56,994 bases of DNA. Origin: an uncultured Candidatus Saccharibacteria bacterium. Its GTDB lineage: Bacteria > Patescibacteriota > Doudnabacteria > UBA920. The position numbers were made by a program, and so were the translations under genes. Location of the stretch: positions 1-56,994 of the forward strand of contig CAYTCJ010000004.1 in NCBI GenBank assembly GCA_964436545.1, written 5' to 3'. Positions 6,550 through 24,928 of the stretch are shown here, in pieces (the stretch's first letter is position 1; each line of letters starts with the position of its first letter). The notes below the pieces were generated by a model. That model saw nothing but the letters and a program-made list of their open reading frames with translations. It searched no databases and had not been told where the DNA came from.

Positions 6550-6553
6550 AAAT

Positions 6554-7442: not shown

Positions 7443-7457
7443 GTAATTATTACTCTC

Positions 7458-7577
7458 ATGCTCAATAAAAAAGAAGATCGCACATTGCGAATTATGCTCT
7501 TGTTATTCACAGGAATTTTACCATTTTTACTACTTGAATTAATTGTAGATAAATGGGGACATAAAAAGATATTTTAA
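7458..7577 (+). CDS. Possible 39-aa single-pass membrane peptide
   Basis: ATG..TAA gives MLNKKEDRTLRIMLLLFTGILPFLLLELIVDKWGHKKIF, which is below the ORF-track cutoff. It has a hydrophobic core and lies directly downstream of the structured RNA and 4 nt upstream of the next small membrane ORF. Confidence 0.3.
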   Translation: MLNKKEDRTLRIMLLLFTGILPFLLLELIVDKWGHKKIF

Positions 7578-7581
7578 GCTT

Positions 7582-7800
7582 ATGAAAAAATCCACTGAAG
7601 ATTTTTTAAGCCTTTTAGGTATTATGGTGTTTCCGCTGATAAGTCTTATTTGCGGTATTTGGATTATCAGCGATAAATCCATGATCCCAAGCATGGCCCA
7701 TCCACTTCCGGCAAGAATATTTTTTTCAATATTTACTTTAATGTGGGCAATGGTGCTTGTTATCCTTCCATTTTGGTGGTATAGAAAACCACGAAATTAA
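7582..7800 (+). CDS. Hypothetical small membrane protein (72 aa, two predicted TM helices)
   Basis: Two hydrophobic stretches (VFPLISLICGIWII, FFSIFTLMWAMVLVILPFWW). No known motif. Confidence 0.45.
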   Translation: MKKSTEDFLSLLGIMVFPLISLICGIWIISDKSMIPSMAHPLPARIFFSIFTLMWAMVLVILPFWWYRKPRN

Positions 7801-7854
7801 TTGCTTTAGTATCATAAATATTGTAAAATAAAGGCATAAATTCAATGATTTTTC

Positions 7855-10800: not shown

Positions 10801-11097
10801 GAACAGGAAGTAGCAAATTATTTAAAACATAATGGATTAAGTGTATGGCCACAATACGAATCCGCGGGGTTTCATATCGATCTTGTCGTAGGAGATGGCC
10901 AGAATTACATCGCTATTGAGTGTGATGGGCCTACCCATTTCGATCTGGAAGAGAGGCAGAACTATTACGATGTTTGGCGGCAATCTATACTAGAAAGAGC
11001 CGGGTGGAGGTTTGTAAGAATTTCTTATAGAGAATGGGAAAGAAGCAGGGAAGAAATTTTAAACAGAGTTTTGGCTAAATTGACTTCCCTAAATTAA
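7855..11097 (+). CDS. SF1 (Upf1/DNA2-like, AAA_11/AAA_12-type) helicase with N-terminal Cys4 motif, DUF4011-like region and C-terminal DUF559/Vsr-like endonuclease-fold domain
   Basis: 1080 aa. CAICKN..CKEC. Walker A GPPGTGKS (nt 8995-9018), motif II VIFDEASQ, motif III MIVGDPKQL, then LDEHFRS, TAHSLQGDEKDVIIL and NVAITRAKKKLYV. The C-terminus (HIDLVVGDG..YIAIECDGPTHF...W RQSILERAGWRFVRISYREW) matches the DUF559 pattern. Confidence 0.85.
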   Translation: MSYYRQHRRFNPTKYWGTKPVCAICKNRKVVSGNICKECQEAGGWGSKTISTEQIQEANKNNFPTTVTVAPIERQEASPLMKSVVGYLKDCATAILRNSTLVDITNTKDVYFLQAPENILELLENNNLEIPGKEAFDLLYKMTSRPNEFELILGILFFIGKSPKSTKDKPKKVYSPLLYVKLEPSRSEDGQSVVFSLKEDTVFLNQAVISQLVEVKDEGELEVRFQDLYGTIPSWPLNLESLNQFLINLSNYFPEIFKEDNPVIDSFIRADEIEVPQNGIGLFPTNLLILSPKQEADGTVIEELNKMLQKLFDQTSADTIICEGGIAPTSPQTGEQPTTSEVFGNEITEDDWHNLWPIDLSDTQKKIVRSARKHALTVVSGPPGTGKSYTIVGVIIDHLLAGKKVLFVSRMDKAVEVIVNQLEQQVGPFAVARSGTRNAQRKLADKLELLTGPNNGVRPVNQKEVEALEHKYSELQDTVKSLENEFLDKVSTERDWGNVHEHIEEINEKIRLNRDLQEILIKDKKIAKLHNKVEGAQALLDNKKFFLLTWWGQRSLNKVRSILNVKPNTNTEELLAIIEKLQNQNLEREIDQELSKFAEVNQLWSEIQEYKDNLRNISKEILTRVLLGNLSLVVNNHYKRIEITTLKQALRAADMRKKHALREKVSTETMLSAFPCWASTTNHLSQILALEPGMFDLVIFDEASQCDLASAIPALYRASRAMIVGDPKQLNHVVFLGRQSEYAAYANNSVPTEAQSTYRFTTRSLFDVAEDKVEQQNYYMLDEHFRSDPHIISFSNEKFYEGKIRIMTERPVNGNGTAIKVDYVHGKRTEGTVNPKEIEAVFKHVQEIITFSDKEKPITIGILCPFRDQVDAITKALPQHLSINEVEDHKIVIGTAHSLQGDEKDVIILSLSIDPGFHHGTLMFLEKPNVFNVAITRAKKKLYVISSVEISDLPNGLLKEFLIHAESSMEETIPLDKFDSKFEQEVANYLKHNGLSVWPQYESAGFHIDLVVGDGQNYIAIECDGPTHFDLEERQNYYDVWRQSILERAGWRFVRISYREWERSREEILNRVLAKLTSLN

Positions 11098-11102
11098 GAT
11101 TT

Positions 11103-11130
11103 AAAAGACCCTCAATGGGTCTTTTAAATT
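11103..11130 (+). terminator. Intrinsic terminator after the helicase-nuclease gene
   Basis: AAAAGACCC-TCAAT-GGGTCTTTT hairpin begins 6 nt after the stop codon. Confidence 0.55.
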
Positions 11131-11200
11131 GTAACTTAAGGTAAAAAAGTGCTAAAATATAGGAAATAATATAAAAAGGGCTCTTATTTGGCACCCTTGA

Positions 11201-13033
11201 ATGGTCTTGGTTATGTATTTATCCAATTTGAAACTTTGGAATTTTAGAAAGTTTGGCGGAGATGGAATCGATGAATTAAATTTACAGGAACCTCACGTCG
11301 AAATTAATTTCACCAAAGGTGTTAACTTGCTTGTAGGAGAAAATGATTCAGGGAAAAGTGCTATCATAGACGCTATAAAATTAATACTGAAAACCCATAG
11401 TGTTGAATGGATCAAGCTTGAAGATGGAGATTTTTTTAAAAACAGTAACCGACTAAGAATTGAGTGCATATTTGAGGATTTCAGCGACCAGGAAGCAAAA
11501 AATTTTGTAGAATGGTTGGGTACAAAAGATGTATTGAATGAAGACGGAACATCAAAAACTGTTCCCTTTTTACGATTGATTATGGATGCAAAAAGAACGG
11601 CTGATAAAATTTTGCCCTGTGATGTTAAAGCTGGAGTGGATGATGAAGGATCTGTTATAAGTGCCGAAGCTCGTGAATATTTAAAAGTGACCTATTTAAG
11701 ACCTTTGCGGGATGCTAAGTCCGAATTGATTGCTAAAAAAAATTCCAGGTTATCTCAAATACTATATAGTCACCCGGTATTTAAGGATAAAGAAAATCAT
11801 GAACTTGTAAAAATTTTAATTGGAGCCAATACCCAAATAAAGGGATATTTTGAGAATGAGGCAGAAAAAGACAAGAACGGCTTTCCGATCTTGTCGACTT
11901 TAAAAACTTACTTAGCCAGCTTTTTAAAAAAGAATACGCCGCAAGATACCAAATTTCATATTGATGACCCAAAACTTAAAAATATTTTAGAAATTTTAAA
12001 ACTGACTTTACAAGACGAATTAAGTGGATTGGGAACCTATAATTTATTATTTATAGCTGCGGAGCTTTTGCATCTACGCAAAGATAATTACAACGGTTTA
12101 AAACTGGGTTTAATAGAAGAAGTTGAAGCTCACTTGCACCCCCAGGCCCAACTTCGAGTGATGGCCGCACTCGAAAATGAATCGGACAAGGATGGTGTCC
12201 AATTAATTTTGACTACTCATAGTCCAAATTTAGCATCTAAAGCTCATGTGGAAAATATAATATTGTGTTATGGACAAAATGTTTTTCCATTACGTAAAGA
12301 ATATTCAGAATTGAAAGATGCAGATTATAATTTCCTAGAACGCTTTTTAGACGTAACTAAGTCTAATTTATTTTTTGCCCAAGGTTTATTATTAGTAGAA
12401 GGTGATGCCGAAAATATACTAATTCCTTCAATAGCAAAACTGATCGGAAAAAATTTGACCGAATATGGAGTATCAATAGTAAATGTGGGTGGACGTATTT
12501 TTTTACGCTATTCTAGAATTTTCCAACGTAAGCCAGGGTTATCTGAAATTGGCTTGCCGGTTTCTGTTGTAACGGACTTAGATATTAAGCCCGAAGACGA
12601 AGCTGCTAAGAAGACTGAGGAAACCACAAAAATTGAACAAAAATATAGTGGCCAGTCAGTCAAAACTTTCGTTTCACCACATCAGACACTAGAATATTGC
12701 CTGGCTCTTTCAGCAAATTTGAAAGAGTTACTCTTCAATGCCATAAAAGCAGCAGGCGAAGAAATGGAAAATGATGGTTATAGCGGGAAAAAAATCTCAG
12801 GAGATTGGTCAACTTTTTCAGCCGGAGTAGAGGAAACGGAGTTAGCCAAAAAAATATATAAGTTACTTACAAAAGAAGGAAAGGCAATTTCTAAATCCAT
12901 CACCGCTCAATTTCTTAGTAAATTTTTAGAAGAAAAATCCTCAGATCAAGACTTCGTTAAAAAACTAAAGGACGACCAACAAATAAAATATATTGTTGAT
13001 GCCATTAATTATGTCACACCGGACAATAACTGA
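11201..13033 (+). CDS. gajA: OLD-family ABC-ATPase + TOPRIM nuclease, Gabija GajA-like
   Basis: 610 aa. Walker A GENDSGKSAIIDAIKL, IEEVEAHLHPQAQ (Walker B/D-loop style), TOPRIM LLLVEGDAENILIP and VVTDLDIKPED. Followed by an overlapping UvrD-like helicase gene. The second ATG at 11213 (MYLSNLKLWNFRKFG) is the more likely start. Confidence 0.8.
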   Translation: MVLVMYLSNLKLWNFRKFGGDGIDELNLQEPHVEINFTKGVNLLVGENDSGKSAIIDAIKLILKTHSVEWIKLEDGDFFKNSNRLRIECIFEDFSDQEAKNFVEWLGTKDVLNEDGTSKTVPFLRLIMDAKRTADKILPCDVKAGVDDEGSVISAEAREYLKVTYLRPLRDAKSELIAKKNSRLSQILYSHPVFKDKENHELVKILIGANTQIKGYFENEAEKDKNGFPILSTLKTYLASFLKKNTPQDTKFHIDDPKLKNILEILKLTLQDELSGLGTYNLLFIAAELLHLRKDNYNGLKLGLIEEVEAHLHPQAQLRVMAALENESDKDGVQLILTTHSPNLASKAHVENIILCYGQNVFPLRKEYSELKDADYNFLERFLDVTKSNLFFAQGLLLVEGDAENILIPSIAKLIGKNLTEYGVSIVNVGGRIFLRYSRIFQRKPGLSEIGLPVSVVTDLDIKPEDEAAKKTEETTKIEQKYSGQSVKTFVSPHQTLEYCLALSANLKELLFNAIKAAGEEMENDGYSGKKISGDWSTFSAGVEETELAKKIYKLLTKEGKAISKSITAQFLSKFLEEKSSDQDFVKKLKDDQQIKYIVDAINYVTPDNN

Positions 13034-14948
13034 TGCAGACATCGCTTACGCGGAAAATATCTTATTGCCTGAAGGTGAAAAGTTTGATTCAGAAAGAGTA
13101 ACTTTCATCAAAGAATTAGGGTCGGTTGATTTACAGGCATGTCCGGGAAGCGGTAAAACGACTTGTTTAATGGCCAAGTTATTAATATTGGCGCGAGAGC
13201 TTCCTTTTGATGATGGTAGCGGTATTTTAGTATTATCCCACACTAACGGAGCCGTTGATGAAATAAAAGAAAAAATTGCAAAGTATTACCCGCAGCTTTT
13301 TAAGTTTCCAACATTTATTGGCACCATTCAAAGTTTTGTAGATCATTTTTTAGCTATTCCTTACTACGTTCAAAAATATAAGCACAAGCCTTTAAGAATA
13401 GACAGTCAAATATTTTATGAGCAAGTGTGGGAACCAGGAAAAGCTAAATTTTGGCTCACTAATAATTTTAAGGAGGCCTCGGATCGAAGAGAATTTTTAG
13501 GAAACATTTGTTTTGATCTAAATGACAATTTAGTTAGTGGACCTGTAGGAACTCCTGAAAATTTTAGAATTAAAGATAAAAACTGCGAAACTTATAAAGC
13601 TCTTTACGAAATGAAAAATAAGTTGTTAGAAAGCGGTTATATATCTTATGATGATGCTTACTATTTTGCCGCTTGCTACATAAAAAAGTTTCCAAAGATT
13701 GTCGACCTACTGCAAAAACGTTTTAAATACGTTTTTATTGACGAAATGCAAGACACGGACACACACCAGCTAGAACTTATAGATACTGTTTTCCCTATGG
13801 GCGGAGGAAGTTCTGTCCAGAGAATCGGTGATCAAAATCAGGCTATCTATAGCAAAGTTAAACCTGATGTTGTATGGAAACCGCGAGATGGTTATTTCAC
13901 TCTTAATGGCAGCAAGAGATTATCACCAAGTATAGCGGCGACAATAAAAAATATTTCCCTCACGCCTCAAGATTTAGTTGGAAATCCTAAAAGACAGAGC
14001 ATAAAACCAAAGATATTACTTTTTGACGATTCCAGTATTCAGAAAGTTCCAAATAAATTTTGCCAGATCGTTATCGATAATAGCTTACATAAACGCCAAA
14101 GCCCTATTTTTAAAGCCATAGGATGGCGTAAAAGGCCGACTGTTGCCAACGGACTCACAATTGGTAGTTATTTTACGGATTCACAAACGATTAAGCAGCG
14201 TATGAAAATCGATTATGATAGCTTAAAGGAATACTTGTTTTTTGAAAGAACGGAAAATATCTCTGAATTAAATTCTTCTAGAAAAAATATTATAAACGCC
14301 CTCATTAAAATTCTTCGTATCGCAAAAATTAAAAATGTGACAGGGGCTGATTTTACCGGTCAGTCGTTCCTTAAATTTCTATCTGAAAAATCACCAGAGG
14401 AATACGAAAAACTCCAATTAAATTTGCTGAACTGGTGCATGTCCTTGGTAAAAGGGTTAGATATACATACTTTAGTATCTGATTATGCTTCGCACTTGTT
14501 AAATGATTTATTCGGCGTAACAGAGATAGCTGACGAAGTTAATAATTTTATTACTTATACTGATAATGATCAAGAAAGCAATGTCGAGAAAATAGCACAA
14601 AAAATTCCTATAAACCGCTTCCATTATATAACGGATGAAGGAAATATTGATCTTGAAATTGCAACGATTCACAGTATAAAAGGAGAAACTCATACCGGAA
14701 CATTATATTTAGAAACATACTATTATAATGACGGTGGGAGATCTTACGAATCAGAGAGGCTAATTGAACAATTAAAAGGTAATCGGGCCACAGGCAAAAT
14801 CGGAAAAAGAGTTCAAGAGAGTTTAAAAATGGCCTATGTGGGAATGAGCAGGCCAACTGATCTGCTTTGTATTGCAATTCATAAAACTCACATACCTACA
14901 ACAGAAATGCCAAATCTAAATAATATGTGGGATGTAGTCGAAGTTTAA
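13011..14948 (+). CDS. gajB: UvrD/PcrA/Rep-like SF1 helicase, Gabija GajB-like
   Basis: Motif I CPGSGKTT, motif II VFIDEMQDT, motif III GDQNQAIY, then TIHSIKGETH and YVGMSRPTDLL. The frame is open from 12993. ATG at 13011 overlaps the gajA 3' end by 23 nt. Confidence 0.8.
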   Translation: MSHRTITDADIAYAENILLPEGEKFDSERVTFIKELGSVDLQACPGSGKTTCLMAKLLILARELPFDDGSGILVLSHTNGAVDEIKEKIAKYYPQLFKFPTFIGTIQSFVDHFLAIPYYVQKYKHKPLRIDSQIFYEQVWEPGKAKFWLTNNFKEASDRREFLGNICFDLNDNLVSGPVGTPENFRIKDKNCETYKALYEMKNKLLESGYISYDDAYYFAACYIKKFPKIVDLLQKRFKYVFIDEMQDTDTHQLELIDTVFPMGGGSSVQRIGDQNQAIYSKVKPDVVWKPRDGYFTLNGSKRLSPSIAATIKNISLTPQDLVGNPKRQSIKPKILLFDDSSIQKVPNKFCQIVIDNSLHKRQSPIFKAIGWRKRPTVANGLTIGSYFTDSQTIKQRMKIDYDSLKEYLFFERTENISELNSSRKNIINALIKILRIAKIKNVTGADFTGQSFLKFLSEKSPEEYEKLQLNLLNWCMSLVKGLDIHTLVSDYASHLLNDLFGVTEIADEVNNFITYTDNDQESNVEKIAQKIPINRFHYITDEGNIDLEIATIHSIKGETHTGTLYLETYYYNDGGRSYESERLIEQLKGNRATGKIGKRVQESLKMAYVGMSRPTDLLCIAIHKTHIPTTEMPNLNNMWDVVEV

Positions 14949-15091
14949 CGATGTTACAGTATTTACGATATTTTAAACCTTTCTTAAAAATTGCACGGAT
15001 TTTATTTTGGGGCCCCCCGGGGCGACATTGCCGATAAAGGCCGTCTTGCCTATACCCCGGGGTACCGGGGGGTAGAAAATCGAGTTGAAAC

Positions 15092-15117
15092 AAAAAGACC
15101 CGCACGGGGTCTTTTTT
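15092..15117 (+). terminator. Intrinsic terminator downstream of gajB
   Basis: AAAAAGACCC-GCACG-GGGTCTTTTTT. Confidence 0.5.
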
Positions 15118-15214
15118 GAATCTACAGACTATCTTGCGGCGGCCAAGGCAGGGATTAAGGCCTGGAATTGCTTTATTTCCTCTACTAAAAAGTTGAAGTT
15201 TCTCAAGCTGTAGT

Positions 15215-15298
15215 CTACCAAATAAAAATACCGAATTTGTTTCGGTATTTTTATTTGTCCTGAGCGAAGTCGAAGGGCTGTATTTGAGGGTGTTTTTG
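15215..15298. repeat. 84-bp direct repeat, copy 1 (83/84 identical to 23187-23270); contains a bidirectional terminator hairpin
   Basis: Compared base by base: CTACCAAATAAAAATACCGAATTTGTTTCGGTATTTTTATTTGTCCTGAGCGAAGTCGAAGGGCTGTATTTGAG[G/A]GTGTTTTTG. Hairpin AAAAATACCGAA-TTTG-TTCGGTATTTTT is at 15224-15251. Confidence 0.9.
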
Positions 15299-15528
15299 AA
15301 AGGAAAAGGAGTCAGGAGCTATTTGCATATAGCAATGGCCTATAAAGCCATAAAAGAACTATTTACAGTTAGTAAACAAACACAGCCAAAAGTTCAATTA
15401 AACACAATTAGAAATTCCATATTAAAAAATAGACCATTTGGTGATGATTTCTGGATAAAAAAACTGCTGAGAGATTAGGTTTGGAGTCAAGTCTTAGACA
15501 ACCAGGTAGACCAAAGAAAGGCTCCTGA
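15284..15528 (+). pseudogene. Remnant of the C-terminal end of an IS200/REP-associated (Y1-type) transposase, frameshifted
   Basis: ...NRPFGDDFWIKK in one frame continues as AERLGLESSLRQPGRPKKGS-stop in another frame. This resembles the ...G...F..K.....GR.L....GRPKK tail that I associate with COG1943-type transposases. No catalytic N-terminal part is present. Confidence 0.35.
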
Positions 15529-15826
15529 CCCTCCTTGCGGACTTAGGTTATGTCATTGCGTCATTCCCCCATAGTTACTATTTAGGCTTCTATTGGGCAG
15601 ATGGGCAGGTGTAAAGGTGATTCCAGTAAGAATATCATTGTCAGATTTTATTAAACAACTCGAGGCTGACATACAAAGGCTGTTTCCCAAACAGGCATAG
15701 GGTTTATTGTTAAAAAATTGGTTAAAATGAGGGTATAATATCCAAGCCCAGCAAAATTCTTACTTGGCTTAAAAATGTCCTTTTGGTTTTATTTATGAAT
15801 TTAAAGGAGGTTATTACTATTACTAA

Positions 15827-15855
15827 TTGACAAACTATTGCAATAGTGTATTATA
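15827..15855 (+). promoter_or_regulatory. Sigma-70-like promoter with a palindromic operator in the spacer, upstream of the six-gene operon
   Basis: TTGACA (15827-15832), 16-nt spacer, TATTAT (15849-15854) preceded by TG. A perfect 14-bp palindrome ACTATTG|CAATAGT (15834-15847) fills the spacer, and a further CAATAG half-site is at 15860-15865. Confidence 0.5.
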
Positions 15856-15893
15856 TATACAATAGATTTAATAATTAACAATATATACTATTT

Positions 15894-16124
15894 ATGGCCA
15901 ATAGTGATACAAATAATAAAAAAGAGCGTTTTAAGAGACTAGCAACCTACCGAACTAACGAAGTTTTGAAGAAACTCAAGGTTTTGGGTAACTGCTCTAA
16001 TAGACAAGCTTATGAATATACAGAGGATGAGGTCAGCAAAATTTTTCAAGAGATTGATCGCACTGTAAAAGAAATAAAATCTAAATTTCATTTTCCAAAA
16101 AAAGAAAAGGAATTCACGTTATAA
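15894..16124 (+). CDS. Hypothetical 76-aa helical, charged protein; first gene of the operon
   Basis: ORF lies 39 nt after the promoter -10 and 15 nt before the next gene. No recognisable motif. Confidence 0.5.
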   Translation: MANSDTNNKKERFKRLATYRTNEVLKKLKVLGNCSNRQAYEYTEDEVSKIFQEIDRTVKEIKSKFHFPKKEKEFTL

Positions 16125-16139
16125 ATTAATCAACCTTAT

Positions 16140-17816
16140 ATGAAATTCATAGAAAATTTACCCATCAATATTAAAAATCAACACCAACTTCTAAATTTAT
16201 TAGCTGAGGGTTATAAAACGCTTAGCAAGGCTTTAATGGAATATATCGACAACTCTTTTGATAGTGCTGACGATTTCTGGGATGGAAAAAAATATTCTAG
16301 GAATATTTTAATTGAGGTTATTGTAGAACGGAGTAAAGGCAAAATTTCCATTAAAGATAATTGTACTGGAATGGATCGTCAACAAATCAAAGGACTGGCA
16401 AATAGCATTAACGAATCTGAAAAGAAAAGGAGAGAACAAAAAAGAGCCTGGGTGAACGGACAGTTTGGCTTAGGAGCACATGCCTTCAGATTTTTCGCCC
16501 AATCAATAACTGTGGCATCAAAGACTATTAATAATAGTCAGGTAGCTATTAACATAGATAGGGACGAGCCAAATGGCCGCCTTGTAAGTATTGATGACGT
16601 AGAATTTTCATCTACGGGTACTCTCGTAGATTTAAACGATATTGATCGAAAAGATCTTAAAAATCTGAACCTTGAAGAATTACAGAAAGATATTCAGACA
16701 TATTTTGAAATGTTACTGAGAAGGAATGTTCAAGTTACGGTTGTAGATAAAGATTCTGGAAAGGAATTAATCTGCATACCTTTTAATTATGATTCCGTAG
16801 ATGGAATTCCAATAATAAAAGTAATATCTATGTGGAACGAGGGAAAAACCAAGGTTGCGACTGAAGAGGGCAAGGGCGTTCTTGTAAATCTTAAAGTATG
16901 TACGCAAAAAATAAATAGGCCTCCCTTCTTTTCAAGAAAAGGAAGAAGAATAAACTATATTGCTCATATGGATTCTTTCATGAGGCGCACCGAGCATAGA
17001 AAAAAAGTATGGGAGAATTACTACCTTACTGGCTACATTGAAGTTAATGACAATCTTTCACCTGTAATAACAAGGGACGACTTTGAAGGTGGAAAGGGTA
17101 AGACCATGAAAAGAAGTGCAATATATAGCGAGATTGTAAAACTTGAGGATGATATCTATTCCGCTATAGAAACTGTTAATAAAGACAAAAGCAACGAAAG
17201 TTTTAAAACCTTGGCATCCCTACTTTCAGATTTGCTGTCAGACCTGGCCAAAGAAGATATCTTAAGATTGAGATACGAAAGCAATGGAGATAAAAATAAA
17301 AAAGACAATAATCAATTAGTGGAACCTGACGAAAAAAGCGATAAAGTTTTTGAGGTTTTTAAACCTGGAGATCATGGAGAACATGATGTGATTGAAGAAC
17401 ATAACAAGGAAACAATTCCAGCGAAACCATCTACAGAAGGAGTAGAAGGTAGGCAGGTGAATAAAGAAAAGGAGGGGGTACAAATTGCTTTTAGCACTCT
17501 GTTAGCTGATAACCGATCTGCATACGGTGACGGAACCATTACCATATTTACTAATCATAAAGACTTCCAAGAAAGGGCTGGGCATACAACCGAAATGGAA
17601 TTAGGACAGATGAGGATTACACCCAGGCTCGCTAACTATTTGGCGGCAGTAATATCTAGTGAGTATAAGGAGATATTTTACCAGCAAAGGAAATTGGAAC
17701 CTAACAGAAAAAATATATTAGACGAACAAATTGATTTTATTTTTAGGTTTGAAGGTAAAATGAAAGATTATATTAATCAACCCTTAGACGCTATCGGATC
17801 TATCAAGCATGCCTAA
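16140..17816 (+). CDS. GHKL-superfamily (Bergerat fold; HATPase_c_3 / MORC-like) ATPase with a long unassigned C-terminal region
   Basis: 558 aa. N-box EYIDNSFDS, G1 box DNCTGMD, G2 box GQFGLGAHAF. About 380 further residues have no motif that I recognise. Confidence 0.8.
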   Translation: MKFIENLPINIKNQHQLLNLLAEGYKTLSKALMEYIDNSFDSADDFWDGKKYSRNILIEVIVERSKGKISIKDNCTGMDRQQIKGLANSINESEKKRREQKRAWVNGQFGLGAHAFRFFAQSITVASKTINNSQVAINIDRDEPNGRLVSIDDVEFSSTGTLVDLNDIDRKDLKNLNLEELQKDIQTYFEMLLRRNVQVTVVDKDSGKELICIPFNYDSVDGIPIIKVISMWNEGKTKVATEEGKGVLVNLKVCTQKINRPPFFSRKGRRINYIAHMDSFMRRTEHRKKVWENYYLTGYIEVNDNLSPVITRDDFEGGKGKTMKRSAIYSEIVKLEDDIYSAIETVNKDKSNESFKTLASLLSDLLSDLAKEDILRLRYESNGDKNKKDNNQLVEPDEKSDKVFEVFKPGDHGEHDVIEEHNKETIPAKPSTEGVEGRQVNKEKEGVQIAFSTLLADNRSAYGDGTITIFTNHKDFQERAGHTTEMELGQMRITPRLANYLAAVISSEYKEIFYQQRKLEPNRKNILDEQIDFIFRFEGKMKDYINQPLDAIGSIKHA

Positions 17817-18702
17817 AACAACTAATAATTCAGAGGCTATAGATGAAAAAAAGATTGTTGAGTTAATTGATAAATTAGCTCCTCTTAATAATGAATTTAG
17901 ACTAACCGAAGATCCTATAAAAAAAATTGAAACAATGTGGGAATTTGGCAAAGTGCTAGATCAATATTTGAGCATCTTAAAGACTAAACTGCACACCCTT
18001 CTCTATAAGATTTATGACCCTTATAGCAATGTCAAAATGAGCTATATAACCAGAGATGCAGGAAGCTACAGTTACAGAATTTACAAATACTTTTCCGAAA
18101 AAGCAAGTATCAGAACCTTTCTGAACGGTTTAACTAGCTATATGGCTTTCAGAGAAGCAATTCCTTTAATATTTAACCCCTCGTATAAACTAGATGAACA
18201 AGCTAAGCAGCAAGTTCTATATCTTATTAAATCTGACCAAAGTTCTCAAGCCATAGTTGATAAGCTACGCTTACTAAAAAAACAGATTAAACCCATAAAT
18301 AATCCGAGAAACCAAAACGCGACAGCTTATGATAAACAAAAAGAATATTTGGATAAATTGGAATCAGATCTAAAAACTTTTTACCTCAATAATAATAATT
18401 TACCAGAGGAAAAGATTATCAACAAAACATTTTATGGCCCGATAGAAAGACAAAATATAGTATCGATATTAATGGCCTTAGCCAGTGATTCTTTAGTAAG
18501 CCAGTTAAAAAATATACAAAAAGAAAAGTTAAATATAAATGATCAAGAGTTATTTGATATAGCCTCTAGTAATAATATGAGCAGATCTCGTTTTAGAAAA
18601 TGGGTGAAATCACACACTGAGCTACTTAGGTTATCTGAAGCTATACATTCTCTAAATGACGAAAATAATTATAAATTTTTTAGAACTAAGTTTATTAACT
18701 AA
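17809..18702 (+). CDS. Hypothetical 297-aa protein (predicted mostly helical), translationally coupled to the GHKL ATPase
   Basis: ATG overlaps the upstream stop (ATGCCTAA). Uninterrupted ORF in the operon frame context. No recognisable motif. Confidence 0.7.
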   Translation: MPKTTNNSEAIDEKKIVELIDKLAPLNNEFRLTEDPIKKIETMWEFGKVLDQYLSILKTKLHTLLYKIYDPYSNVKMSYITRDAGSYSYRIYKYFSEKASIRTFLNGLTSYMAFREAIPLIFNPSYKLDEQAKQQVLYLIKSDQSSQAIVDKLRLLKKQIKPINNPRNQNATAYDKQKEYLDKLESDLKTFYLNNNNLPEEKIINKTFYGPIERQNIVSILMALASDSLVSQLKNIQKEKLNINDQELFDIASSNNMSRSRFRKWVKSHTELLRLSEAIHSLNDENNYKFFRTKFIN

Positions 18703-18711
18703 TCAAAAGTT

Positions 18712-19509
18712 ATGGCTAGAAATACTAAACAACCAGTGTTGCGCCAAGCAAACTTTTCATACGATGAAATGGAAGCAGTGATACCCAAAATAGAACGCAG
18801 GATTGCTGATATTGATGAATTTGATGTAAATTTAATTCATGACAGGAGTGATCCAAAAATAGGTACTTTACGTTTAAAACTTGAAACATTATTAGCTAAT
18901 ATTTTTGGGGCAGATACTGTAGAATACGAACGTTACCATTGGGACATGACCTATCTTGATAGAGCCCAGGTTAATATGATGTATGCAACACCAATAGAGG
19001 AAGTTAGAGAAGGTCTACAGCTTGGACTCTCTAAAGCTAAAGCACAATTAGTAGCAATCAAGCAAGGATTTTTAGAAGAATTGGAGGACGCAGGTCGAAC
19101 TACATCAGGTAAAACTCTAAAAGCTTATGAGGGTCTAGAATTACATCCAGCCATAGAACGTGCCTCCGGTCAGCTATTTAAAAACGGCCACTATGCAAAT
19201 GCTATTGAGGATGGTGTTAAAGCTTTAAATGCTTTGGTCAGATTAAATAGTGGCGTAGACGATAAAGACGGAATGCCGCTTATGGAATCCGTATTTAGTC
19301 CAAAGAGTCCTGTCTTGAAATTTAATGCTTTGGCTGATGATTCAGATATTGATGAACAAAAAGGGTTTATGATGATGTTTTCTGGTGCAGTTGCAGGGCT
19401 TCGAAATCCACGTGCGCATAAAATTATCAAAGATGATCCTGAAAAGGCTCTTGAATTCATAGCATATATTAGTTTGTTAGCAAAGCTAGCAGATAAAGCA
19501 AAAAAGTAA
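18712..19509 (+). CDS. TIGR02391 (Hypoth_Ymh)-family domain protein with an unassigned N-terminal half
   Basis: 265 aa. The C-terminal half (LHPAIERASGQLFKNGHYANAIEDGVKALNALVR...GMPLM...EQKGFMMMFSGAVAGLRNPRAHK) fits the TIGR02391 signature, ending in RNP.AH. Confidence 0.7.
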   Translation: MARNTKQPVLRQANFSYDEMEAVIPKIERRIADIDEFDVNLIHDRSDPKIGTLRLKLETLLANIFGADTVEYERYHWDMTYLDRAQVNMMYATPIEEVREGLQLGLSKAKAQLVAIKQGFLEELEDAGRTTSGKTLKAYEGLELHPAIERASGQLFKNGHYANAIEDGVKALNALVRLNSGVDDKDGMPLMESVFSPKSPVLKFNALADDSDIDEQKGFMMMFSGAVAGLRNPRAHKIIKDDPEKALEFIAYISLLAKLADKAKK

Positions 19510-19519
19510 TAACTTTATT

Positions 19520-20239
19520 ATGAGTCATGAAAGTAATATAGAATATATTGAATCTTTACTTACAGAATCCTATAGTCAAGAAGAAACAAGTGTAATACCG
19601 AAAAGAAATGATTTAACTTTCGGAAATACAATCAAAAAGATTAAACACGCTGTGATTCTTTATATTGACATGAGAGGATCAAGAAAAATAATTCAAGATG
19701 CTACTACTTTTTGGAGCATTAAAACACATAGAGCATTCTTGCAAGCTATCATTTATTGCGTAGAAAATAGAGAAGGTCATTTTAGAAGTTTTAATGGAGA
19801 TGGGGCGCTTGCGTTTTTTGTTGGAGAGAATGCAGCCTCAAGAGCAGTTAGGACTGCTTTGGATATAAAAGCGTACGTGAGGAAAATAAATGAGACCTTG
19901 CTTATTTCAATAGACAAAGAAATTGATTTTGGTATAGGGATAGCTCAAGGAGGCGTATCGGTAGCTAAGAGCGGAAACAAAGGAGATGATGCTACTAAAC
20001 AAGATTTAGTATGGGTTGGCCTTCCTGTATATCTTGCGGTTGAGCTTAGCGACTACGGAAGGAGTCCAAACAACATTTGGATAAGCCCGAATGTAAGAAG
20101 TGCCATAGGTAAACAGGATTGTTTAAATGTAGTTTATAATGGTAACGATAGCATTTGGATGAAAGTATCAAAAAAATTTAAATCAGTTGGTGAATATGAG
20201 GTAAGATATACAAGTTATTATTCTACTATTTTTGAATAA
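19520..20239 (+). CDS. pycC: Class III nucleotidyl cyclase-fold protein, Pycsar PycC-like
   Basis: 239 aa. Metal-binding motifs ILYIDMRGS and FNGDGALAFF, then IGIAQGGV...G and VWVGLPVYLAVELSD (corresponding to G..VN.AaR). Immediately followed by a Pycsar-type TM effector gene. Confidence 0.7.
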   Translation: MSHESNIEYIESLLTESYSQEETSVIPKRNDLTFGNTIKKIKHAVILYIDMRGSRKIIQDATTFWSIKTHRAFLQAIIYCVENREGHFRSFNGDGALAFFVGENAASRAVRTALDIKAYVRKINETLLISIDKEIDFGIGIAQGGVSVAKSGNKGDDATKQDLVWVGLPVYLAVELSDYGRSPNNIWISPNVRSAIGKQDCLNVVYNGNDSIWMKVSKKFKSVGEYEVRYTSYYSTIFE

Positions 20240-20240
20240 T

Positions 20241-20714
20241 ATGAATAAATACAACGATGAATTAAATCGAACTGTGGAATTTATCAAGCTAGCAGATGCT
20301 AAAATCGGCTATGTTTTAACAGTATATTTTGTAATTTTTGGATTATGGGTAGGAAAGTTCGATTATATAAAATCTCACCACAATGCTCTAAATCTTATAT
20401 TCTATTTTATTTCTCTATATGTTGCCACGACGCAAGCTTACTATATACTAAAATCTTTATCACCTTCTCTTTTTATAAAAAATATTGTTAAAAACTCTGT
20501 TATTTATTATGGAGATATCTCCAAACTCGATATTAACACTTATAAAAAAATGAGGATGGATTTAGATGAAGCAAATTTAGATCAATTATACCTAGATCAA
20601 ATTTTTATAAATTCGATTATAGTATCAAATAAGATGAAAAGCGTAAAAACATCTATTCTTTTGATGTTGCTATTACTCCTTTTGACCTTTAGTCTTTATT
20701 TGATGGCCAGATAA
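20241..20714 (+). CDS. pycTM: Small multi-pass membrane protein, Pycsar effector (PycTM / DUF5706-like)
   Basis: About 157 aa. N-terminal FIKLADAKIGYVLTV resembles the ..aD.K...ll motif of Pycsar effector-family proteins (recalled from memory). Three hydrophobic helices. ATG at 20241 lies 1 nt after the cyclase stop; the ORF track starts at a TTG at 20232. Confidence 0.6.
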   Translation: MNKYNDELNRTVEFIKLADAKIGYVLTVYFVIFGLWVGKFDYIKSHHNALNLIFYFISLYVATTQAYYILKSLSPSLFIKNIVKNSVIYYGDISKLDINTYKKMRMDLDEANLDQLYLDQIFINSIIVSNKMKSVKTSILLMLLLLLLTFSLYLMAR

Positions 20715-20742
20715 AAGTAATTAATGGATAAGAACATTATTT

Positions 20743-20840
20743 ATATTATTTTGGATAGTCAAAGGGGAAAGTTTACAAAAGATTATTCTTGTATTTCCGC
20801 TGCATTTATGGCTTTGTTGTAAACAGGCTCTAAGGAAGCT
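20743..20840. repeat. About 100-bp imperfect direct repeat, copy A (pairs with 23039-23140)
   Basis: Aligned by eye at roughly nine-tenths identity: ATATTATTTTGGATAGTCAAAG.GGAAAGTTT...GATTATTCTTGTAT.TCCGC...ATTTATGGCTTTGTT.TAAACAGGCTC.AAGG. On the minus strand it reads ...EPVYNKAINAAEIQE-stop. Confidence 0.8.
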
Positions 20841-20935: not shown

Positions 20936-22960
20936 GTGGATAAAAATGAGAATAAAATTTGTTTAGAGGAAGCTCCTGATTGGACAAAAGAAATTACAGA
21001 AAAAGAATTAGTAGAACTCACCAAAACTACTACGTCTTCAGGCCCCACAAACGAAAACATAACTTGCGTCTGCTTTTTACACAGGCGTGTTTTTCGTACA
21101 TCACCTACGCAAAACGAAGATTATTACGCTTTTGTTTACAGATTAGATACGCCCGAATTGCTTCAGGGTGCTGCTATTAATGACTATCTTATAAATAAAG
21201 AGCAGAGAATGGTACTCCATCGTTTGGGGGTGATCAGGAATGGAGAATATCTTGATAAGCAGCAAGATTCTTTAACAAGAGTTTTAGACGACGAATCTCA
21301 GTCAGCCCAAGGGTCAATTAATCAGCAAAAAAAAGTTCATATAATGGTTAGTGATTTTAGATTAGGTGATGTATTAGTTCTCGAGTATTCGATAATTACG
21401 GAATTTTTAAAAGAAAATTGTATTGACCCCGAATACCTTAGATTCACTCATAACTTTCCCCAGCGCAACTGGTTAACCACAAATTATACTTTTGCTTTCA
21501 TTAATGACCGAGCCCAGGATGTTGCTGTAAAGAAAAGATACTTTAGACATAACAATGGAAAACTTGTTGAAGAAACGAAAGTCATTCACCCAAAGGAAAC
21601 TTTTCTTTTTGAAGAAAAAAACTTTCAAACAAAATTTGGACCAGATGAAATGGCTCCATTTTTTGAAATTGCAACCGTAGCTTCGTGGAAATATGTATAT
21701 AGGTTTCTCCAACAACTCTATAAACCTGCCTTGGAAAAAGATGATTCTAAAATCATAGGTAGTCTATTTAAAATTCTTTTTACGGGAGTTTCAGACGAAG
21801 AAAGCAAAATACGTAAAATTATAGAATATGTTCAAGAGCATATAGTCTACAATTTTGACGCTGATGTCATGCATGGTCATATCCCTCAGTCGATAGATGA
21901 AACGCTTAAGTCTCAAGCAGGAGACTGTAAAGCCAAATCTTTACTTCTAATTAAATTATTGTCCCATTTAGGTATCAAGGCAAAACTTGTTTTGGTAAAT
22001 TATAACCTTGGTTTTTATACAAACCAACAGCTACCTTCCCCATTTGTTTTTGATCACATGATAGCTAAAATATACTTTAAAGATAAAGTATATTTTGCTG
22101 ATCCCACTTGGAAAGGCCAACGTGGAATACTTGAAAAGCGTACCCAACCTTTTGCACCCTATTATTTAGAAATAGGAGGCTCGACAATACTTCAGACAAT
22201 GCCAGAAGAAGATGTAGATTTTTATTTGGAAGAAAATATAAATATTGAAATAAAAAAAGGTGTGGGCAAGCTTCAAGCGAGCACCATATACAGATATGCC
22301 TCTGCTGATAATTTAAGATTAAAACAACGTAATAATAGTAACCTACAACGAGTTCAAGACGAGATAAAATATCACTTTGATAGGTTACAATACCCCGTAG
22401 ATAAACCCATTAATGAATATATTACTGATGCTCAATATAAGATAATAGAAGACAATGAACAATTAAATGAAATAAAAGATCTGTTTACAGCAACACTCCC
22501 TAAACCATATACATCAAACACCGAAGTTTTAAAAATATTTAAATATTATAATAACCTAGATTTAAGTAATCTCAATTTTCCCTTTAACAAGGATGCTATA
22601 CTGGGAAATTTTGTAGATCATTCAAGGAAATTTATTTTAACTGTTCATAGCGATAAATTTTATAAAAGGAATGATCCAGTAACTAGTAGAAATACAGAAA
22701 TTAAGAATGATTATTTTAAATTTAGTAACAAAAAGAAACTGTCATTTAGGACAGTCAAAGTTGTTGCAGAATATAAACCCAAAATTAGCAAACCTATAGA
22801 TCCGAATGACTTGGAGCAATTAAAAAATGATTATGCCAAAATAAATGACAGTAATTTTGGAGTAGGGATAGCATATAAGCCAATCAAGCAATGGCTGATC
22901 TTATTGTTTGTGATTATTTCTTGGGTTGTGATTGGTTTAATTAGCAATCTTAATAAGTAA
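20936..22960 (+). CDS. Transglutaminase-like cysteine peptidase-fold protein (DUF3857-like N-terminal region + transglutaminase core) with a C-terminal TM anchor
   Basis: 674 aa with a GTG start. Cys-His-Asp triad candidates are QAGDCKAKSLLLIKLLSHLGI, FDHMIAKIYF and YFADPTW. The C-terminal hydrophobic helix is WLILLFVIISWVVIGLI. Confidence 0.75.
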   Translation: MDKNENKICLEEAPDWTKEITEKELVELTKTTTSSGPTNENITCVCFLHRRVFRTSPTQNEDYYAFVYRLDTPELLQGAAINDYLINKEQRMVLHRLGVIRNGEYLDKQQDSLTRVLDDESQSAQGSINQQKKVHIMVSDFRLGDVLVLEYSIITEFLKENCIDPEYLRFTHNFPQRNWLTTNYTFAFINDRAQDVAVKKRYFRHNNGKLVEETKVIHPKETFLFEEKNFQTKFGPDEMAPFFEIATVASWKYVYRFLQQLYKPALEKDDSKIIGSLFKILFTGVSDEESKIRKIIEYVQEHIVYNFDADVMHGHIPQSIDETLKSQAGDCKAKSLLLIKLLSHLGIKAKLVLVNYNLGFYTNQQLPSPFVFDHMIAKIYFKDKVYFADPTWKGQRGILEKRTQPFAPYYLEIGGSTILQTMPEEDVDFYLEENINIEIKKGVGKLQASTIYRYASADNLRLKQRNNSNLQRVQDEIKYHFDRLQYPVDKPINEYITDAQYKIIEDNEQLNEIKDLFTATLPKPYTSNTEVLKIFKYYNNLDLSNLNFPFNKDAILGNFVDHSRKFILTVHSDKFYKRNDPVTSRNTEIKNDYFKFSNKKKLSFRTVKVVAEYKPKISKPIDPNDLEQLKNDYAKINDSNFGVGIAYKPIKQWLILLFVIISWVVIGLISNLNK

Positions 22961-23038
22961 GTCTGGAATGTAAATATACTCCTTTGAGTTCATAATACTG
23001 GTTCTGAATTGGTTGGTTATACTGAGATACTATAAATA

Positions 23039-23140
23039 ATATTATTTTGGATAGTCAAAGAGGAAAGTTTTTTCAAGGATTATTCTTGTATCTCCGCAGA
23101 ATTTATGGCTTTGTTATAAACAGGCTCAAAGGTAGGAAGT
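23039..23140. repeat. About 100-bp imperfect direct repeat, copy B (pairs with 20743-20840)
   Basis: See copy A. On the minus strand it reads ...LDNAKPLLELLWQLPTFEPVYNKAINSAEIQE-stop. Differences from copy A are synonymous or conservative, which suggests a decayed gene 3' end. Confidence 0.8.
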
Positions 23141-23186
23141 TGCCAAAGCAGTTCCAGCAAGGGTTTTGCATTATCTAAACAAGAGG

Positions 23187-23270
23187 CTACCAAATAAAAA
23201 TACCGAATTTGTTTCGGTATTTTTATTTGTCCTGAGCGAAGTCGAAGGGCTGTATTTGAGAGTGTTTTTG
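23187..23270. repeat. 84-bp direct repeat, copy 2 (83/84 identical to 15215-15298)
   Basis: See copy 1. The terminator hairpin is at 23196-23223. Confidence 0.9.
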
Positions 23271-23329: not shown

Positions 23330-24496
23330 ATGAAAAGATTAGTGGAAATTGCCTCTGGTTTAATAAAACGAGTTACAAATGAGCCAGCAGTAGGAGCAGT
23401 AGCAGTAGGAGTAGTAGAAAGAGTGGAAGCCAAAGGCCGGCCTAAAGGACTGGAAAGATACAAGCAACAACTTGAAGGCTTACGGGCTGAATTTGATCGA
23501 GTTTTCGATCCGCAAAAAAGAAATAATACCGAGGATATATATAAAATGGCAAAAAGGATGAAAAGAATGTGTGAGGGGCCACTTTCTGAGTGTGTTTATT
23601 CAGGAGTATTTAGAAGCGAAGGGGGTTTTTTGTCTCCTCAGCAGGGTGAAAACGAAAGGTTAAGAGCGGAAGGTCAACGTAAAACCGCTAACTGGGTTGC
23701 GAGTGTAATTCAAGAATTGGATAAGTGTATAGCCAATATTGAAGAGGTTCTACCGGCTGTAGCCTTTCAAAAAATAAAGACAGAGGTAATCCAATTGGAA
23801 GGGGGTGGGGAGCCAGGTTATACGCCCAACCAAAATCCATGCACTCGGAAATATTTTTCTGAGTTGTCGGCAATGAATAAAAAAGCAAACGAGCGTCTTG
23901 CTCCTTTAAAACATATTAGAGAAGCCTCTACAATTATTCGGCCTGATGATTTGCAACAGATTGGCTCAGTTCGTAGAACATTATTACAAGATCGTGAATT
24001 TTGGCAAGCGATTTTGGAAGATTGTCAATCCACAGATCCCAAAACTTACAATCGTACCACATTGGATAATTTTGATTACATTGAAGTTATGATTATTTTG
24101 GGTATGGTTGATAAGCACGAACGAGCATTTTCTAAAGATGGTCGTTCGGAGGCAGATAAAGGCATGGCTTATATTTTCGGATATGGCTCTGACGGGGGGA
24201 ATCTGAATGCTGAGTTTGATGATGATAAAATAAATACAGAAACAATTCCTGAGTCCTTTGCCGACCCAAAAAAATATTTTGCAAGTTTAAGATTAACTCC
24301 AAAGGAATTAGCAGGAAGGACTGAGAAAGAGGTAAGGGATATATTAAAAAAGCGGTATTACCCTATATGTAAAGAATGCCACCCCGACCTTTATCCTGGC
24401 GATGAGGCAAAAGAGGTGCAATTTAAAAATTTAAGTGAGGCGTACGAAGTACTGCTTGACCCAAAAAAACGAGCTGATTATTTGAGAGGAAATTAA
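23330..24496 (+). CDS. J-domain (DnaJ-like) protein with a large unassigned N-terminal region
   Basis: 388 aa. The C-terminal about 65 aa (RDILKKRYYPICKECHPDLYPGDEAKEVQFKNLSEAYEVLLDPKKRADY) carries the HPD motif and J-domain helices. Confidence 0.75.
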   Translation: MKRLVEIASGLIKRVTNEPAVGAVAVGVVERVEAKGRPKGLERYKQQLEGLRAEFDRVFDPQKRNNTEDIYKMAKRMKRMCEGPLSECVYSGVFRSEGGFLSPQQGENERLRAEGQRKTANWVASVIQELDKCIANIEEVLPAVAFQKIKTEVIQLEGGGEPGYTPNQNPCTRKYFSELSAMNKKANERLAPLKHIREASTIIRPDDLQQIGSVRRTLLQDREFWQAILEDCQSTDPKTYNRTTLDNFDYIEVMIILGMVDKHERAFSKDGRSEADKGMAYIFGYGSDGGNLNAEFDDDKINTETIPESFADPKKYFASLRLTPKELAGRTEKEVRDILKKRYYPICKECHPDLYPGDEAKEVQFKNLSEAYEVLLDPKKRADYLRGN

Positions 24497-24878: not shown

Positions 24879-24903
24879 AATATATTTTATATAGCTTTTA
24901 AAA

Positions 24904-24928
24904 GGCACCCTTATAAGGGTGCCTTTTT
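24904..24928 (+). terminator. Intrinsic terminator
   Basis: GGCACCC-TTATAA-GGGTGCC followed by TTTTT. Confidence 0.6.

Follow-up and report, generated by a model that had tools for sequence, protein, structure and literature searches.

We analysed a run of six genes (g1–g6, 15,894–20,714) on the forward strand of contig CAYTCJ010000004.1 from an uncultured Candidatus Saccharibacteria bacterium (assembly GCA_964436545.1), a stretch of 56,994 nt that is referred to below as the window. We consider it likely that these genes form three independently mobile conflict modules standing in a row inside an inserted block of roughly 8 kb. The first module, g1–g2–g3, would be an unnamed cassette of the MORC/paraMORC-like class of GHKL ATPases that is associated with restriction–modification (R-M); the second, g4, an abortive-infection-type RNase with a HEPN (Ymh) domain that stands by itself; and the third, g5–g6, a pair in which a cyclase would make a cyclic pyrimidine nucleotide on infection and thereby activate a membrane effector. 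An original prediction, made from the sequence alone, had instead joined a four-gene GHKL/MORC-like module to a Pycsar-type pair and had allowed that the module might act as a sensor or regulator upstream of the cyclase.

The first module is defined by its conservation. Loci encoding a GHKL protein related to g2 were collected by a pattern scan of species-representative genomes, and the six proteins were searched in the resulting 77 loci by tblastn (E ≤ 1e-3). The genes g1 (15,894–16,124, + strand, 76 aa), g2 (16,140–17,816, + strand, 558 aa) and g3 (17,809–18,702, + strand, 297 aa) were co-linear in 29 loci other than the window (28 non-redundant), defined by clustering of open reading frames (ORFs) as those with g3 directly after g2. 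The small g1 was detected in 20 of these 29, directly upstream, and was elsewhere missed or diverged, some contigs being truncated. Homologues of g4, g5 and g6 were found in none of the 77 loci. Because the triad is co-linear in 29 loci, g4–g6 accompany none of the 77 and relatives of g4 occur without the triad, we take g1–g2–g3 to be the conserved unit.

The triad is patchily distributed across phyla and domains at low copy number, with hosts among Patescibacteria, Omnitrophota, Ignavibacteriales, Nitrospirota, Bacteroidota, Actinomycetota and others, as well as a Pacearchaeota (DPANN) bin. The last (Candidatus Pacearchaeota, locus L003, 6,420–9,211) carries a complete triad whose g1, g2 and g3 are 69%, 59% and 49% identical to those of the window, which implies either transfer between domains or a binning error. 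A word-indexed search of 5.8 billion proteins recovered only 69 relatives of g2, all at 60% identity or less. Among 2.9 million viral contigs there were two GHKL matches and five g1 matches, so few that a phage origin of the triad was rejected; on plasmids, no g2 homologue was found. None of g1–g3 matched a model in PADLOC-DB v2 (v2.0.0), even at E ≤ 10, and searches of Pfam, NCBIfam and PHROGs returned nothing for them beyond HATPase_c_3 in g2. The literature on HATPase_c_3, GHKL, paraMORC, PDC-M33 and DUF6339 yielded no description of the triad. The triad is thus a conserved, unnamed gene set outside every modelled family, as had been supposed for the upstream genes. Tiamat, a single-gene ATPase system represented by a model in PADLOC, was considered for g2 as a homologue of TmtA and is excluded by the same negative scan.

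The other three genes carry recognizable domains. Residues 143–258 of g4 (18,712–19,509, + strand, 265 aa) match Hypoth_Ymh (PF09509; E 3.4e-28) and TIGR02391 (E 1.7e-20), bearing out the assignment of its C-terminal half, and the Rx4H motif reads RNPRAH within GLRNPRAHK. PADLOC matches were Aga_HEPN (1.4e-15), PD-Lambda-3_B (1.2e-12, C-terminal half) and PDC-S35 (9e-4). In size and two-domain layout g4 resembles PD-Lambda-3_B and PDC-S35, the PDC-S35 match being marginal; PD-Lambda-3 is matched through its B model only, with no gene matching the A component. We found 74 metagenomic relatives of g4, full length and up to 73% identical, none of which adjoins a triad or has a conserved neighbour or partner; at one of the 74 loci a PycC-like gene lies on the other strand, some 2 kb off. 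Accordingly the four-gene module of the original prediction stands for g1–g2–g3, which recur together in 29 loci, but not for g4, which is missing from all 77 GHKL loci. The g4 gene, a solo combination of an N-terminal domain with Ymh HEPN, is an independent module, and is predicted to encode an RNase toxin or to be an Abi-type gene.

The last two genes were rightly read as a Pycsar-type cyclase and transmembrane protein. The g5 product (19,520–20,239, + strand, 239 aa) matches PADLOC PycC at E 2.5e-48 over profile positions 9–222 of 226, and that of g6 (20,241–20,714, + strand, 157 aa counted from an ATG; the listed ORF begins at a TTG at 20,232) matches PADLOC PycTM at E 4.5e-22, with a Pfam PycTM match (E 2e-4) under its cut-off; both PADLOC models are matched along almost their whole length. 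By sequence criteria g5–g6 are a canonical Pycsar pair, and Pycsar works as a self-sufficient two-gene system. The pair differs from known Pycsar only by its position, 10 nt after an unrelated gene and apparently without an intergenic promoter of its own.

The arrangement of the six ORFs agreed in every length and gap with the original prediction. All are co-directional and follow one another at 15 nt, an 8-nt overlap (ATGCCTAA, 17,809–17,816), 9 nt, 10 nt and 1 nt. A sigma-70-type promoter, TTGACA-16-TATTAT (15,827–15,854, + strand), lies upstream, with a perfect palindrome of 14 bp, ACTATTGCAATAGT (15,834–15,847), in its spacer; promoter and palindrome were both found where predicted, as were the motifs EYIDNSFDS, DNCTGMD and GQFGLGAHAF in the translation of g2 and GLRNPRAHK in that of g4. 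With 11 of 12 consensus positions, the promoter is the joint best match across 14.8–23.4 kb; the second 11/12 site, at 19,665, falls within pycC, and promoter-like sites in this interval occur at chance frequency (32 seen versus 34.7 expected from shuffles). The palindrome by itself is not rare: perfect ones of 14 bp or more number 16 in the window, where Markov-1 random sequences have about 6. Its exact placement in the spacer, and comparable inverted repeats that overlap the promoters of g1 homologues elsewhere, nevertheless argue for more than chance. Further CAATAG/CTATT half-sites lie near the promoter. Two terminator-like hairpins (15,096–15,117 and 15,219–15,257) separate gajB from the promoter; from there to 20,714 the + strand showed none. 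The genes g1–g6 are probably read from this one strong, operator-controlled promoter.

Such an arrangement could be that of one integrated six-gene system, in which g1–g4 sense infection and control or feed the Pycsar cyclase and effector. Fusions of GHKL and Ymh domains are known (PMC3710099), which would favour it. So would the spacings of 1–15 nt or overlap, the single strong promoter with no + strand terminator found behind it, and the enclosure of all six genes in one block bracketed by direct repeats. The comparative data, however, point the other way: g4, PycC and PycTM are absent from all 77 GHKL loci, the triad is absent from all 74 g4 loci (the one PycC-like gene among them lying about 2 kb off on the opposite strand), and both Pycsar genes match the standard PADLOC models of a system that works with these two genes. 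We therefore regard an integrated system as very improbable. The proposed joining of the GHKL module to Pycsar is a local juxtaposition and no conserved architecture, and a role of that module as a sensor or regulator upstream of the cyclase finds no comparative support. For scans of this kind the locus is a caution that tight spacing and a common promoter do not make a system.

The central protein of the triad, g2, matches Pfam HATPase_c_3 at E 3.8e-13 and carries the motifs EYIDNSFDS (residues 34–42), DNCTGMD (73–79) and GQFGLGAHAF (107–116). In a profile of 40 homologues, E34, N38, D41, D73, G77, G107 and G112 are invariant, as are G268 and R269 of the middle domain. Because the Bergerat residues and G268/R269 are invariant, g2 is likely to be an active ATPase. 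The profile found Hsp90/HtpG N-domains as its best match among PDB sequences (E 3.5e-13). In an AF2 model (pLDDT 84.5) the protein aligned over about 420 columns with the N-terminal and middle domains of Hsp90, and the top 50 Foldseek matches were all of the Hsp90 family (Hsp90/Hsc82, GRP94, TRAP1 and HtpG; E about 1e-16), with no MORC or MutL structure among the 50 listed. The middle domain of Hsp90 belongs to the same fold class as the S5-type/transducer domain. Of the label 'GHKL/MORC-like', the GHKL part is upheld by HATPase_c_3 and the intact motifs, whereas the MORC-like part is imprecise, the nearest solved relatives being Hsp90/HtpG by both profile and fold. Beyond the N-terminal and middle domains, a helix of 47 residues leads into a beta-rich domain, and three further helices end the protein. 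The C-terminal part contains the invariant residues H473, D475, F476 and R479 (HxDFxxR motif), and its profile had no match among PDB sequences and no detectable relatives. A reading of the HPDF motif as PD-(D/E)xK could not be supported.

The partner g3 was described from the outset as a protein without recognizable motif, which was borne out: nothing in Pfam, PADLOC, NCBIfam or PHROGs matched it, nor did a search by fold. Its AF2 model (pLDDT 91.7) is all-alpha with 16 helices, and Foldseek found no match in the PDB (best E 0.55) or BFVD (best E 0.47); its profile gave only a chance match among PDB sequences (E 0.13). An exhaustive profile search of 1.84 billion representatives recovered 97 proteins only. 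Full-length relatives are nearly all of 250–310 aa, shorter ones resemble fragments, and there is one possible fusion (446 aa). The invariant residues are mainly Arg, Lys, Asn, Trp and Tyr and include no His, which argues against an HD or HEPN enzyme. We take g3 to be the family-specific partner of g2, which it directly follows in 29 loci.

The leader g1 is a basic protein of 76 aa, probably a helical hairpin as judged from its sequence, with relatives in 423 homologue clusters, all unnamed. Mismatch fractions at the three codon positions are 0.36, 0.26 and 0.61, and 55% of identical residues are encoded by different codons; g1 is therefore a true protein under purifying selection. It is better conserved than its partners, with median identities to the window copies, in the same loci, of 63% for g1, 29% for g2 and 31% for g3. 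The window g1 is 79% identical to the copy of L159, compared with 43–56% in L001, L004 and L005, the loci in which g2 is closest to that of the window (46–60%); the trees of g1 and g2 thus do not follow each other. The unit AATAAGGGYRTTGACA-N17-19-...CCTTA stands upstream of g1 in at least 16 loci, irrespective of the partner family, and consists of TAAGG/CCTTA half-sites in inverted orientation that flank a consensus promoter or lie within it; the window and L078/L079 have operators with CTATTG/CAATAG half-sites instead. The leader, its own promoter and an inverted-repeat operator are a shared conserved module. Neither Pfam, PADLOC, NCBIfam nor PHROGs matched g1, and its profile found only chance matches among PDB sequences. 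DUF4145 and DUF5677 recurred as sub-threshold Pfam matches among 34 homologues scanned and were not trusted.

The leader also occurs outside the triad. It heads at least six other types of operon, each with a divergent GHKL-like ATPase. Seven loci of g1 relatives were examined independently of g2, and in none of them (0/7) does a g2 of the window type follow. In six of the seven, g1 is followed directly or one gene later by another large protein with Bergerat-like motifs. The GHKL assignment of these large proteins is based on sub-threshold HATPase_c_3 matches (five independent ones, E 0.003–0.05), on visible Bergerat motifs and on one hhalign match (E 2e-4). The genes after g1 encode a 501-aa protein in L078; a 202-aa protein, a protein of about 693 aa and a DnaA_C-HTH(-HNH) protein in L080 and L081; an N6_N4 methylase and a 757-aa protein in L159; a 783-aa protein in L160; a 780-aa protein and an SduA_C nuclease (E 4.3e-24) in L161; and a 154-aa product before the contig end in L162. 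Two tandem genes of 73 aa (6,595–6,816 and 7,001–7,222), the second a g1 homologue, precede the truncated operon of L162.

Homologues of g1 on annotated plasmids (35–45% identity) likewise lead GHKL-like operons. On an Agrobacterium plasmid g1 is followed by a 621-aa GHKL-like protein (the hhalign match of E 2e-4), GajA (8e-221) and GajB (3e-178), and on a Dinoroseobacter plasmid by a near-identical 621-aa protein, a 461-aa protein, and an 'ATP-binding protein' with a UvrD-helicase, these last two GajA/GajB-like by annotation. On Priestia, Planococcus, Arthrobacter and Deinococcus plasmids g1 precedes PDC-M33A/B/C, with Dcm, Vsr, type II restriction endonucleases (REases) and Shedu nearby; this assignment was made by scan for Priestia and, for M33A only, Deinococcus, and by gene sizes and DUF6339 annotation for Planococcus and Arthrobacter. 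On an Ensifer plasmid g1 is followed by an 800-aa protein with an N-box. Overall, the plasmid operons adjoin genes for Dcm, Vsr, type II REases, Shedu and Gabija. Gabija lies near g1–GHKL operons on three unrelated replicons. In L168 (Agrobacterium pAtK224b, 6,025–11,297) GajA/GajB follow 55 nt downstream of the GHKL gene in the same direction; in L171 (Dinoroseobacter pDSHI06) the pair beside g1–GHKL is identified by annotation only; and in the window (11,201–17,816) Gabija stands upstream of the g1–GHKL operon, behind terminators. This adjacency could reflect a functional link or shared residence in an island.

What follows the triad varies. No fourth conserved gene is present after g3 on the map of the triad loci. 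In about 12 of 26 informative loci, as read from this map, a close co-directional gene follows, and these genes are heterogeneous. Type III Mod and Res follow in five of the 29 loci (four non-redundant), nucleases in two further loci and neither in the rest; an HTH-HNH protein, a pP_pnuc_1 nuclease, Fic, a protease and ImmA with PIN were each seen at one locus. The pP_pnuc_1 protein of L043 was compared with g4 and rejected as g4-like. We considered whether the triad might be a controller like CapK–CapS, in which the GHKL protein senses stress, relieves repression by g1 and switches on downstream cargo. The g1–operator–promoter unit as a conserved head before variable gene sets would suit this, as would the conflict-type genes (type III R-M, HNH, pP_pnuc_1, Fic, PIN) directly downstream in about 12 of 26 loci and the precedent of a GHKL kinase paired with a repressor (PMC13373217). 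However, about 14 of the 26 informative loci have no co-directional downstream gene, so that the triad is kept alone; the fold of g2 is that of the Hsp90 N-terminal and middle domains and not anti-sigma-kinase-like, and no STAS or HTH domain was found; and sister operons pair the GHKL protein with nucleases as an effector complex, as in the split-VcSduA-like L161 with its SduA_C protein. We judge a controller of this kind unlikely.

We sampled 127 neighbour proteins at 28 triad loci, in which only type III R-M (six methyltransferases and three to four REases), resolvases and DUF3800 proteins recurred. A different role, service to a mobile element or chromosome through MORC/Hsp90-like DNA compaction or silencing, as a replication or partition accessory or as a chaperone, would agree with the housekeeping nature of most sampled neighbours in genomes of the candidate phyla radiation (CPR), with the want of a recognized effector domain in the triad, with the frequency of recombinases, conjugation genes and plasmids around g1–GHKL operons, and with a distant GHKL branch of Chloroflexota that lies among metabolic genes. 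Set against it are the patchy distribution and low copy number of the triad, the recurrence of R-M, Gabija and Shedu genes beside the operons with swapped nuclease partners, the flagging of the related PDC-M33 as a defence candidate by the PADLOC authors, and the fact that the Chloroflexota branch is without g1 and g3. A maintenance role seems to us slightly less probable still than a controller. The more distant branches of g2 lack g1 and g3 in general. That of Chloroflexota (about 480 aa; L016, L018, L022, L025, L027, L030, L036–L039, L044, L046 and L048) neighbours genes for acetate kinase, EutJ-like, alcohol dehydrogenase, CoA-disulfide-reductase-like and histidine kinase proteins, and probably has a different, non-defence function; an Ignavibacteria branch adjoins an integrase and an excisionase.

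The closest described class is that of the MORC and paraMORC proteins, for which Iyer, Abhiman and Aravind predicted in 2008 (PMC2292703) that GHKL ATPases work with R-M-type enzymes. Like the triad, these have a GHKL ATPase domain and a C-terminal extension peculiar to the family, and the Hsp90-like middle domain of g2 may correspond to their second (transducer) domain. They are also sporadic across phyla, and their neighbourhoods with type III R-M, Dcm/Vsr and nucleases recall those of some triad loci and of the sister g1–GHKL operons. The R-M and defence context of the g1–GHKL operons matches the MORC/paraMORC neighbourhoods described there. Unlike this class, g2 has its nearest solved structures in Hsp90, not MutL or MORC, and the triad has no conserved adjacent SFII helicase; a g1 leader and an all-alpha g3 were not found in the searched text of PMC2292703. 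We regard the triad as a candidate variant of the MORC/paraMORC-type, R-M-associated GHKL class.

In layout, PDC-M33 resembles the triad: its leader is of the g1 family and precedes a GHKL-like protein of some 620 aa, in which Bergerat-like motifs are seen, and then a protein of about 285 aa; like other g1–GHKL operons it lies beside R-M genes on plasmids. However, g2 and g3 have no PDC-M33A or PDC-M33B match even at E ≤ 10, the Priestia M33A and M33B proteins were negative by hhalign against the g2 and g3 profiles, and the triad has no DUF6339 gene (the C component), so that the common part is the g1 leader family only. No paper on PDC-M33 was found; it is itself a PADLOC candidate.

The class now has tested relatives in VcSduA (Shedu type I-D) and Ambrosia. 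In the former, a GHKL domain is fused to a DUF4263 nuclease, and the ATPase is proposed to control the nuclease (PMC12137116). The L161 operon, with its 780-aa GHKL-like protein and separate SduA_C nuclease, resembles a split VcSduA, whereas g2 and g3 have no DUF4263/SduA_C domain or PADLOC Shedu match. Ambrosia, which is experimentally protective, comprises an XRE regulator, a methyltransferase, a HATPase, a receiver (REC) protein and an HNH protein (bioRxiv 10.1101/2025.09.30.679545). It opens with a small regulator, after which come an ATPase resembling Hsp90 and histidine kinases and enzymes resembling those of R-M; this recalls the present operons, for instance L159 with g1, methylase and GHKL-like protein. 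The triad differs in having no methylase, receiver domain or HNH, and g1 is not an XRE helix-turn-helix (HTH) protein. CapK is an HTH-STAS-GHKL (anti-sigma-kinase-like) protein and CapS a STAS-wHTH protein (PMC13373217). With CapK–CapS and with the controller (C) proteins of R-M systems the triad shares a small first gene, a palindromic operator over its own promoter and variable downstream conflict genes, and differs in that STAS and HTH domains were not detected in g1, g2 or g3.

For the triad, the first of the three modules, we propose the following mode of action. By analogy with the C proteins, which are Xre-type HTH proteins, g1 might repress its own promoter and so hold the operon under tight control, an idea that fits the conserved promoter–operator–g1 unit; it may also be an adaptor of the ATPase. 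The g2 protein would dimerize into an ATP-driven clamp of the Hsp90 kind, while binding of the target, or an effector function directed at invading DNA, would fall to g3 or to the C-terminal domain of g2 with HxDFxxR. Gene context gives moderate support to a defence function of the triad. An anti-phage activity, DNA binding by g1, clamping by g2 and the part played by g3 are inferred, whereas the data show the gene content, the conservation and co-linearity of the triad, the independence of g4 and of Pycsar, the folds and the common g1–promoter–operator module.

Several observations weigh against the three-module reading or parts of it. Co-transcription of g1–g6 is judged from spacing alone. 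Apart from the recurrent families, the sampled triad neighbours, mostly in CPR genomes, are housekeeping genes, so that enrichment in defence islands is modest, and scans of Pfam, PADLOC, NCBIfam and PHROGs found no recognizable effector domain in the triad. No HTH or known DNA-binding fold was detected in g1. The half-site of the window is CTATTG and the common one TAAGGR, though g1 is 70–79% identical; a different half-site with a nearly unchanged protein is awkward for an operator-binding role. That g1 is so strictly paired with GHKL proteins points to a direct functional connection and to more than a generic regulator; g1 may, for example, be a client, an adaptor or a CapS-like substrate of the GHKL protein. 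Finally, fusions of paraMORC with Ymh have been reported in R-M neighbourhoods, and the same HEPN survey lists Ymh under 'solos and fusions' (PMC3710099), so that g4 might still cooperate with g2 here. Unlike these fusions, g4 is not fused to a GHKL domain and its orthologues never adjoin a GHKL gene; the literature fusions are the sole support for a g2–g4 link, which the co-occurrence data do not back.

A broader idea, which we put forward as a tentative possibility, is that g1 and a GHKL ATPase are the core of a large modular anti-invader superfamily with PDC-M33, split Shedu-like, methylase-linked and Gabija-linked branches, in which g1 would serve all members as infection sensor or adaptor, with the all-alpha g3, a new fold, as the effector in the triad. 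If so, the superfamily would span CPR bacteria, DPANN archaea and cultivated bacteria, and the nearly invariant g1 of 73–76 aa would be more than a repressor, with the Hsp90-like ATPase acting on it. The broad set of g1-led GHKL operons appears to be undescribed as such in the literature. Many of them belong to CPR bacteria or DPANN archaea, groups in which known models annotate defence systems poorly. Together with its promoter and operator, g1 marks them in a simple way: a single profile of 75 residues finds hundreds of unannotated GHKL-based operons. Should the triad protect against phages or plasmids, an Hsp90-like ATPase system and two proteins of unknown fold would join the defence repertoire, and the long-predicted MORC/paraMORC class would gain another testable member.

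The six genes lie in an island that runs from tRNA-Glu through a serine recombinase, PrimPol, an SF1 helicase, GajA/GajB, g1–g6 and a transglutaminase-like gene to a gene for a DnaJ-domain protein, after which housekeeping genes follow. The predicted position beside Gabija and a helicase-nuclease was corroborated: GajA and GajB, upstream of g1–g6, match PADLOC models at E about 1e-205 to 1e-214, and the upstream helicase carries an MTES_1575 nuclease domain. An 87-nt direct repeat, present in two copies only in the window (15,212–15,298 and 23,184–23,270, 98% identical), encloses a 7.97-kb low-GC block with g1–g6 and the transglutaminase-like gene; GC in this block is 0.29–0.36, against about 0.38–0.44 in the flanks. 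Nested inside, a second pair of about 103 nt (20,736–20,838 and 23,032–23,135, 82–90% identical) encloses only the transglutaminase-like gene (20,936–22,960) and has no unusual RNA fold (z about 0.1). Because two nested pairs of direct repeats bracket the block and the transglutaminase-like gene, the data suggest that the region was assembled through successive cassette-like insertions. The left 87-nt copy includes a 17-bp perfect hairpin (15,219–15,257; fold z = −4.1), which looks like a bidirectional terminator. The tRNA-Glu gene (1,762–1,836) overlaps the 3′ end of the opposite-strand large serine recombinase ORF (1,796–3,337), with PrimPol next, and this site is probably the integration boundary of the entire island.

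Further features of the window were recorded. Just inside the left 87-nt repeat, a short ORF (15,284–15,530) ends in ...NRPFGDDFWIKK, and another frame continues as ...LGLESSLRQPGRPKKGS; it may resemble the C-terminal end of REP-associated/IS200-like transposases. A G+C-rich segment (14,990–15,085) with the inverted runs GGGGCCCCCCGGGG ... CCCCGGGGTACCGGGGGG lies directly after gajB, before a terminator, and had no Rfam match at gathering score. The HIP1 motif, sought as a clue to cyanobacterial origin, was absent. Within 8 kb the window encodes an Hsp90-like ATPase (g2, 16,140–17,816), a HEPN protein (g4, 18,712–19,509) and a DnaJ-domain protein (23,330–24,496), types of domain that eukaryotic sacsin unites according to the HEPN survey (PMC3710099); this trio is probably a coincidence. 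Long perfect palindromes are found at 1,170–1,195 (26 bp), 24,900–24,927 (28 bp) and 50,093–50,116 (24 bp), the 28-bp one (AAAAGGCACCCTTATAAGGGTGCCTTTT) upstream of an HSP20 gene. Between the PrimPol and helicase-nuclease genes, a match to LOOT RNA (RF03000) lies at 7,282–7,412, with 75.3 bits against a gathering score of 46.4.

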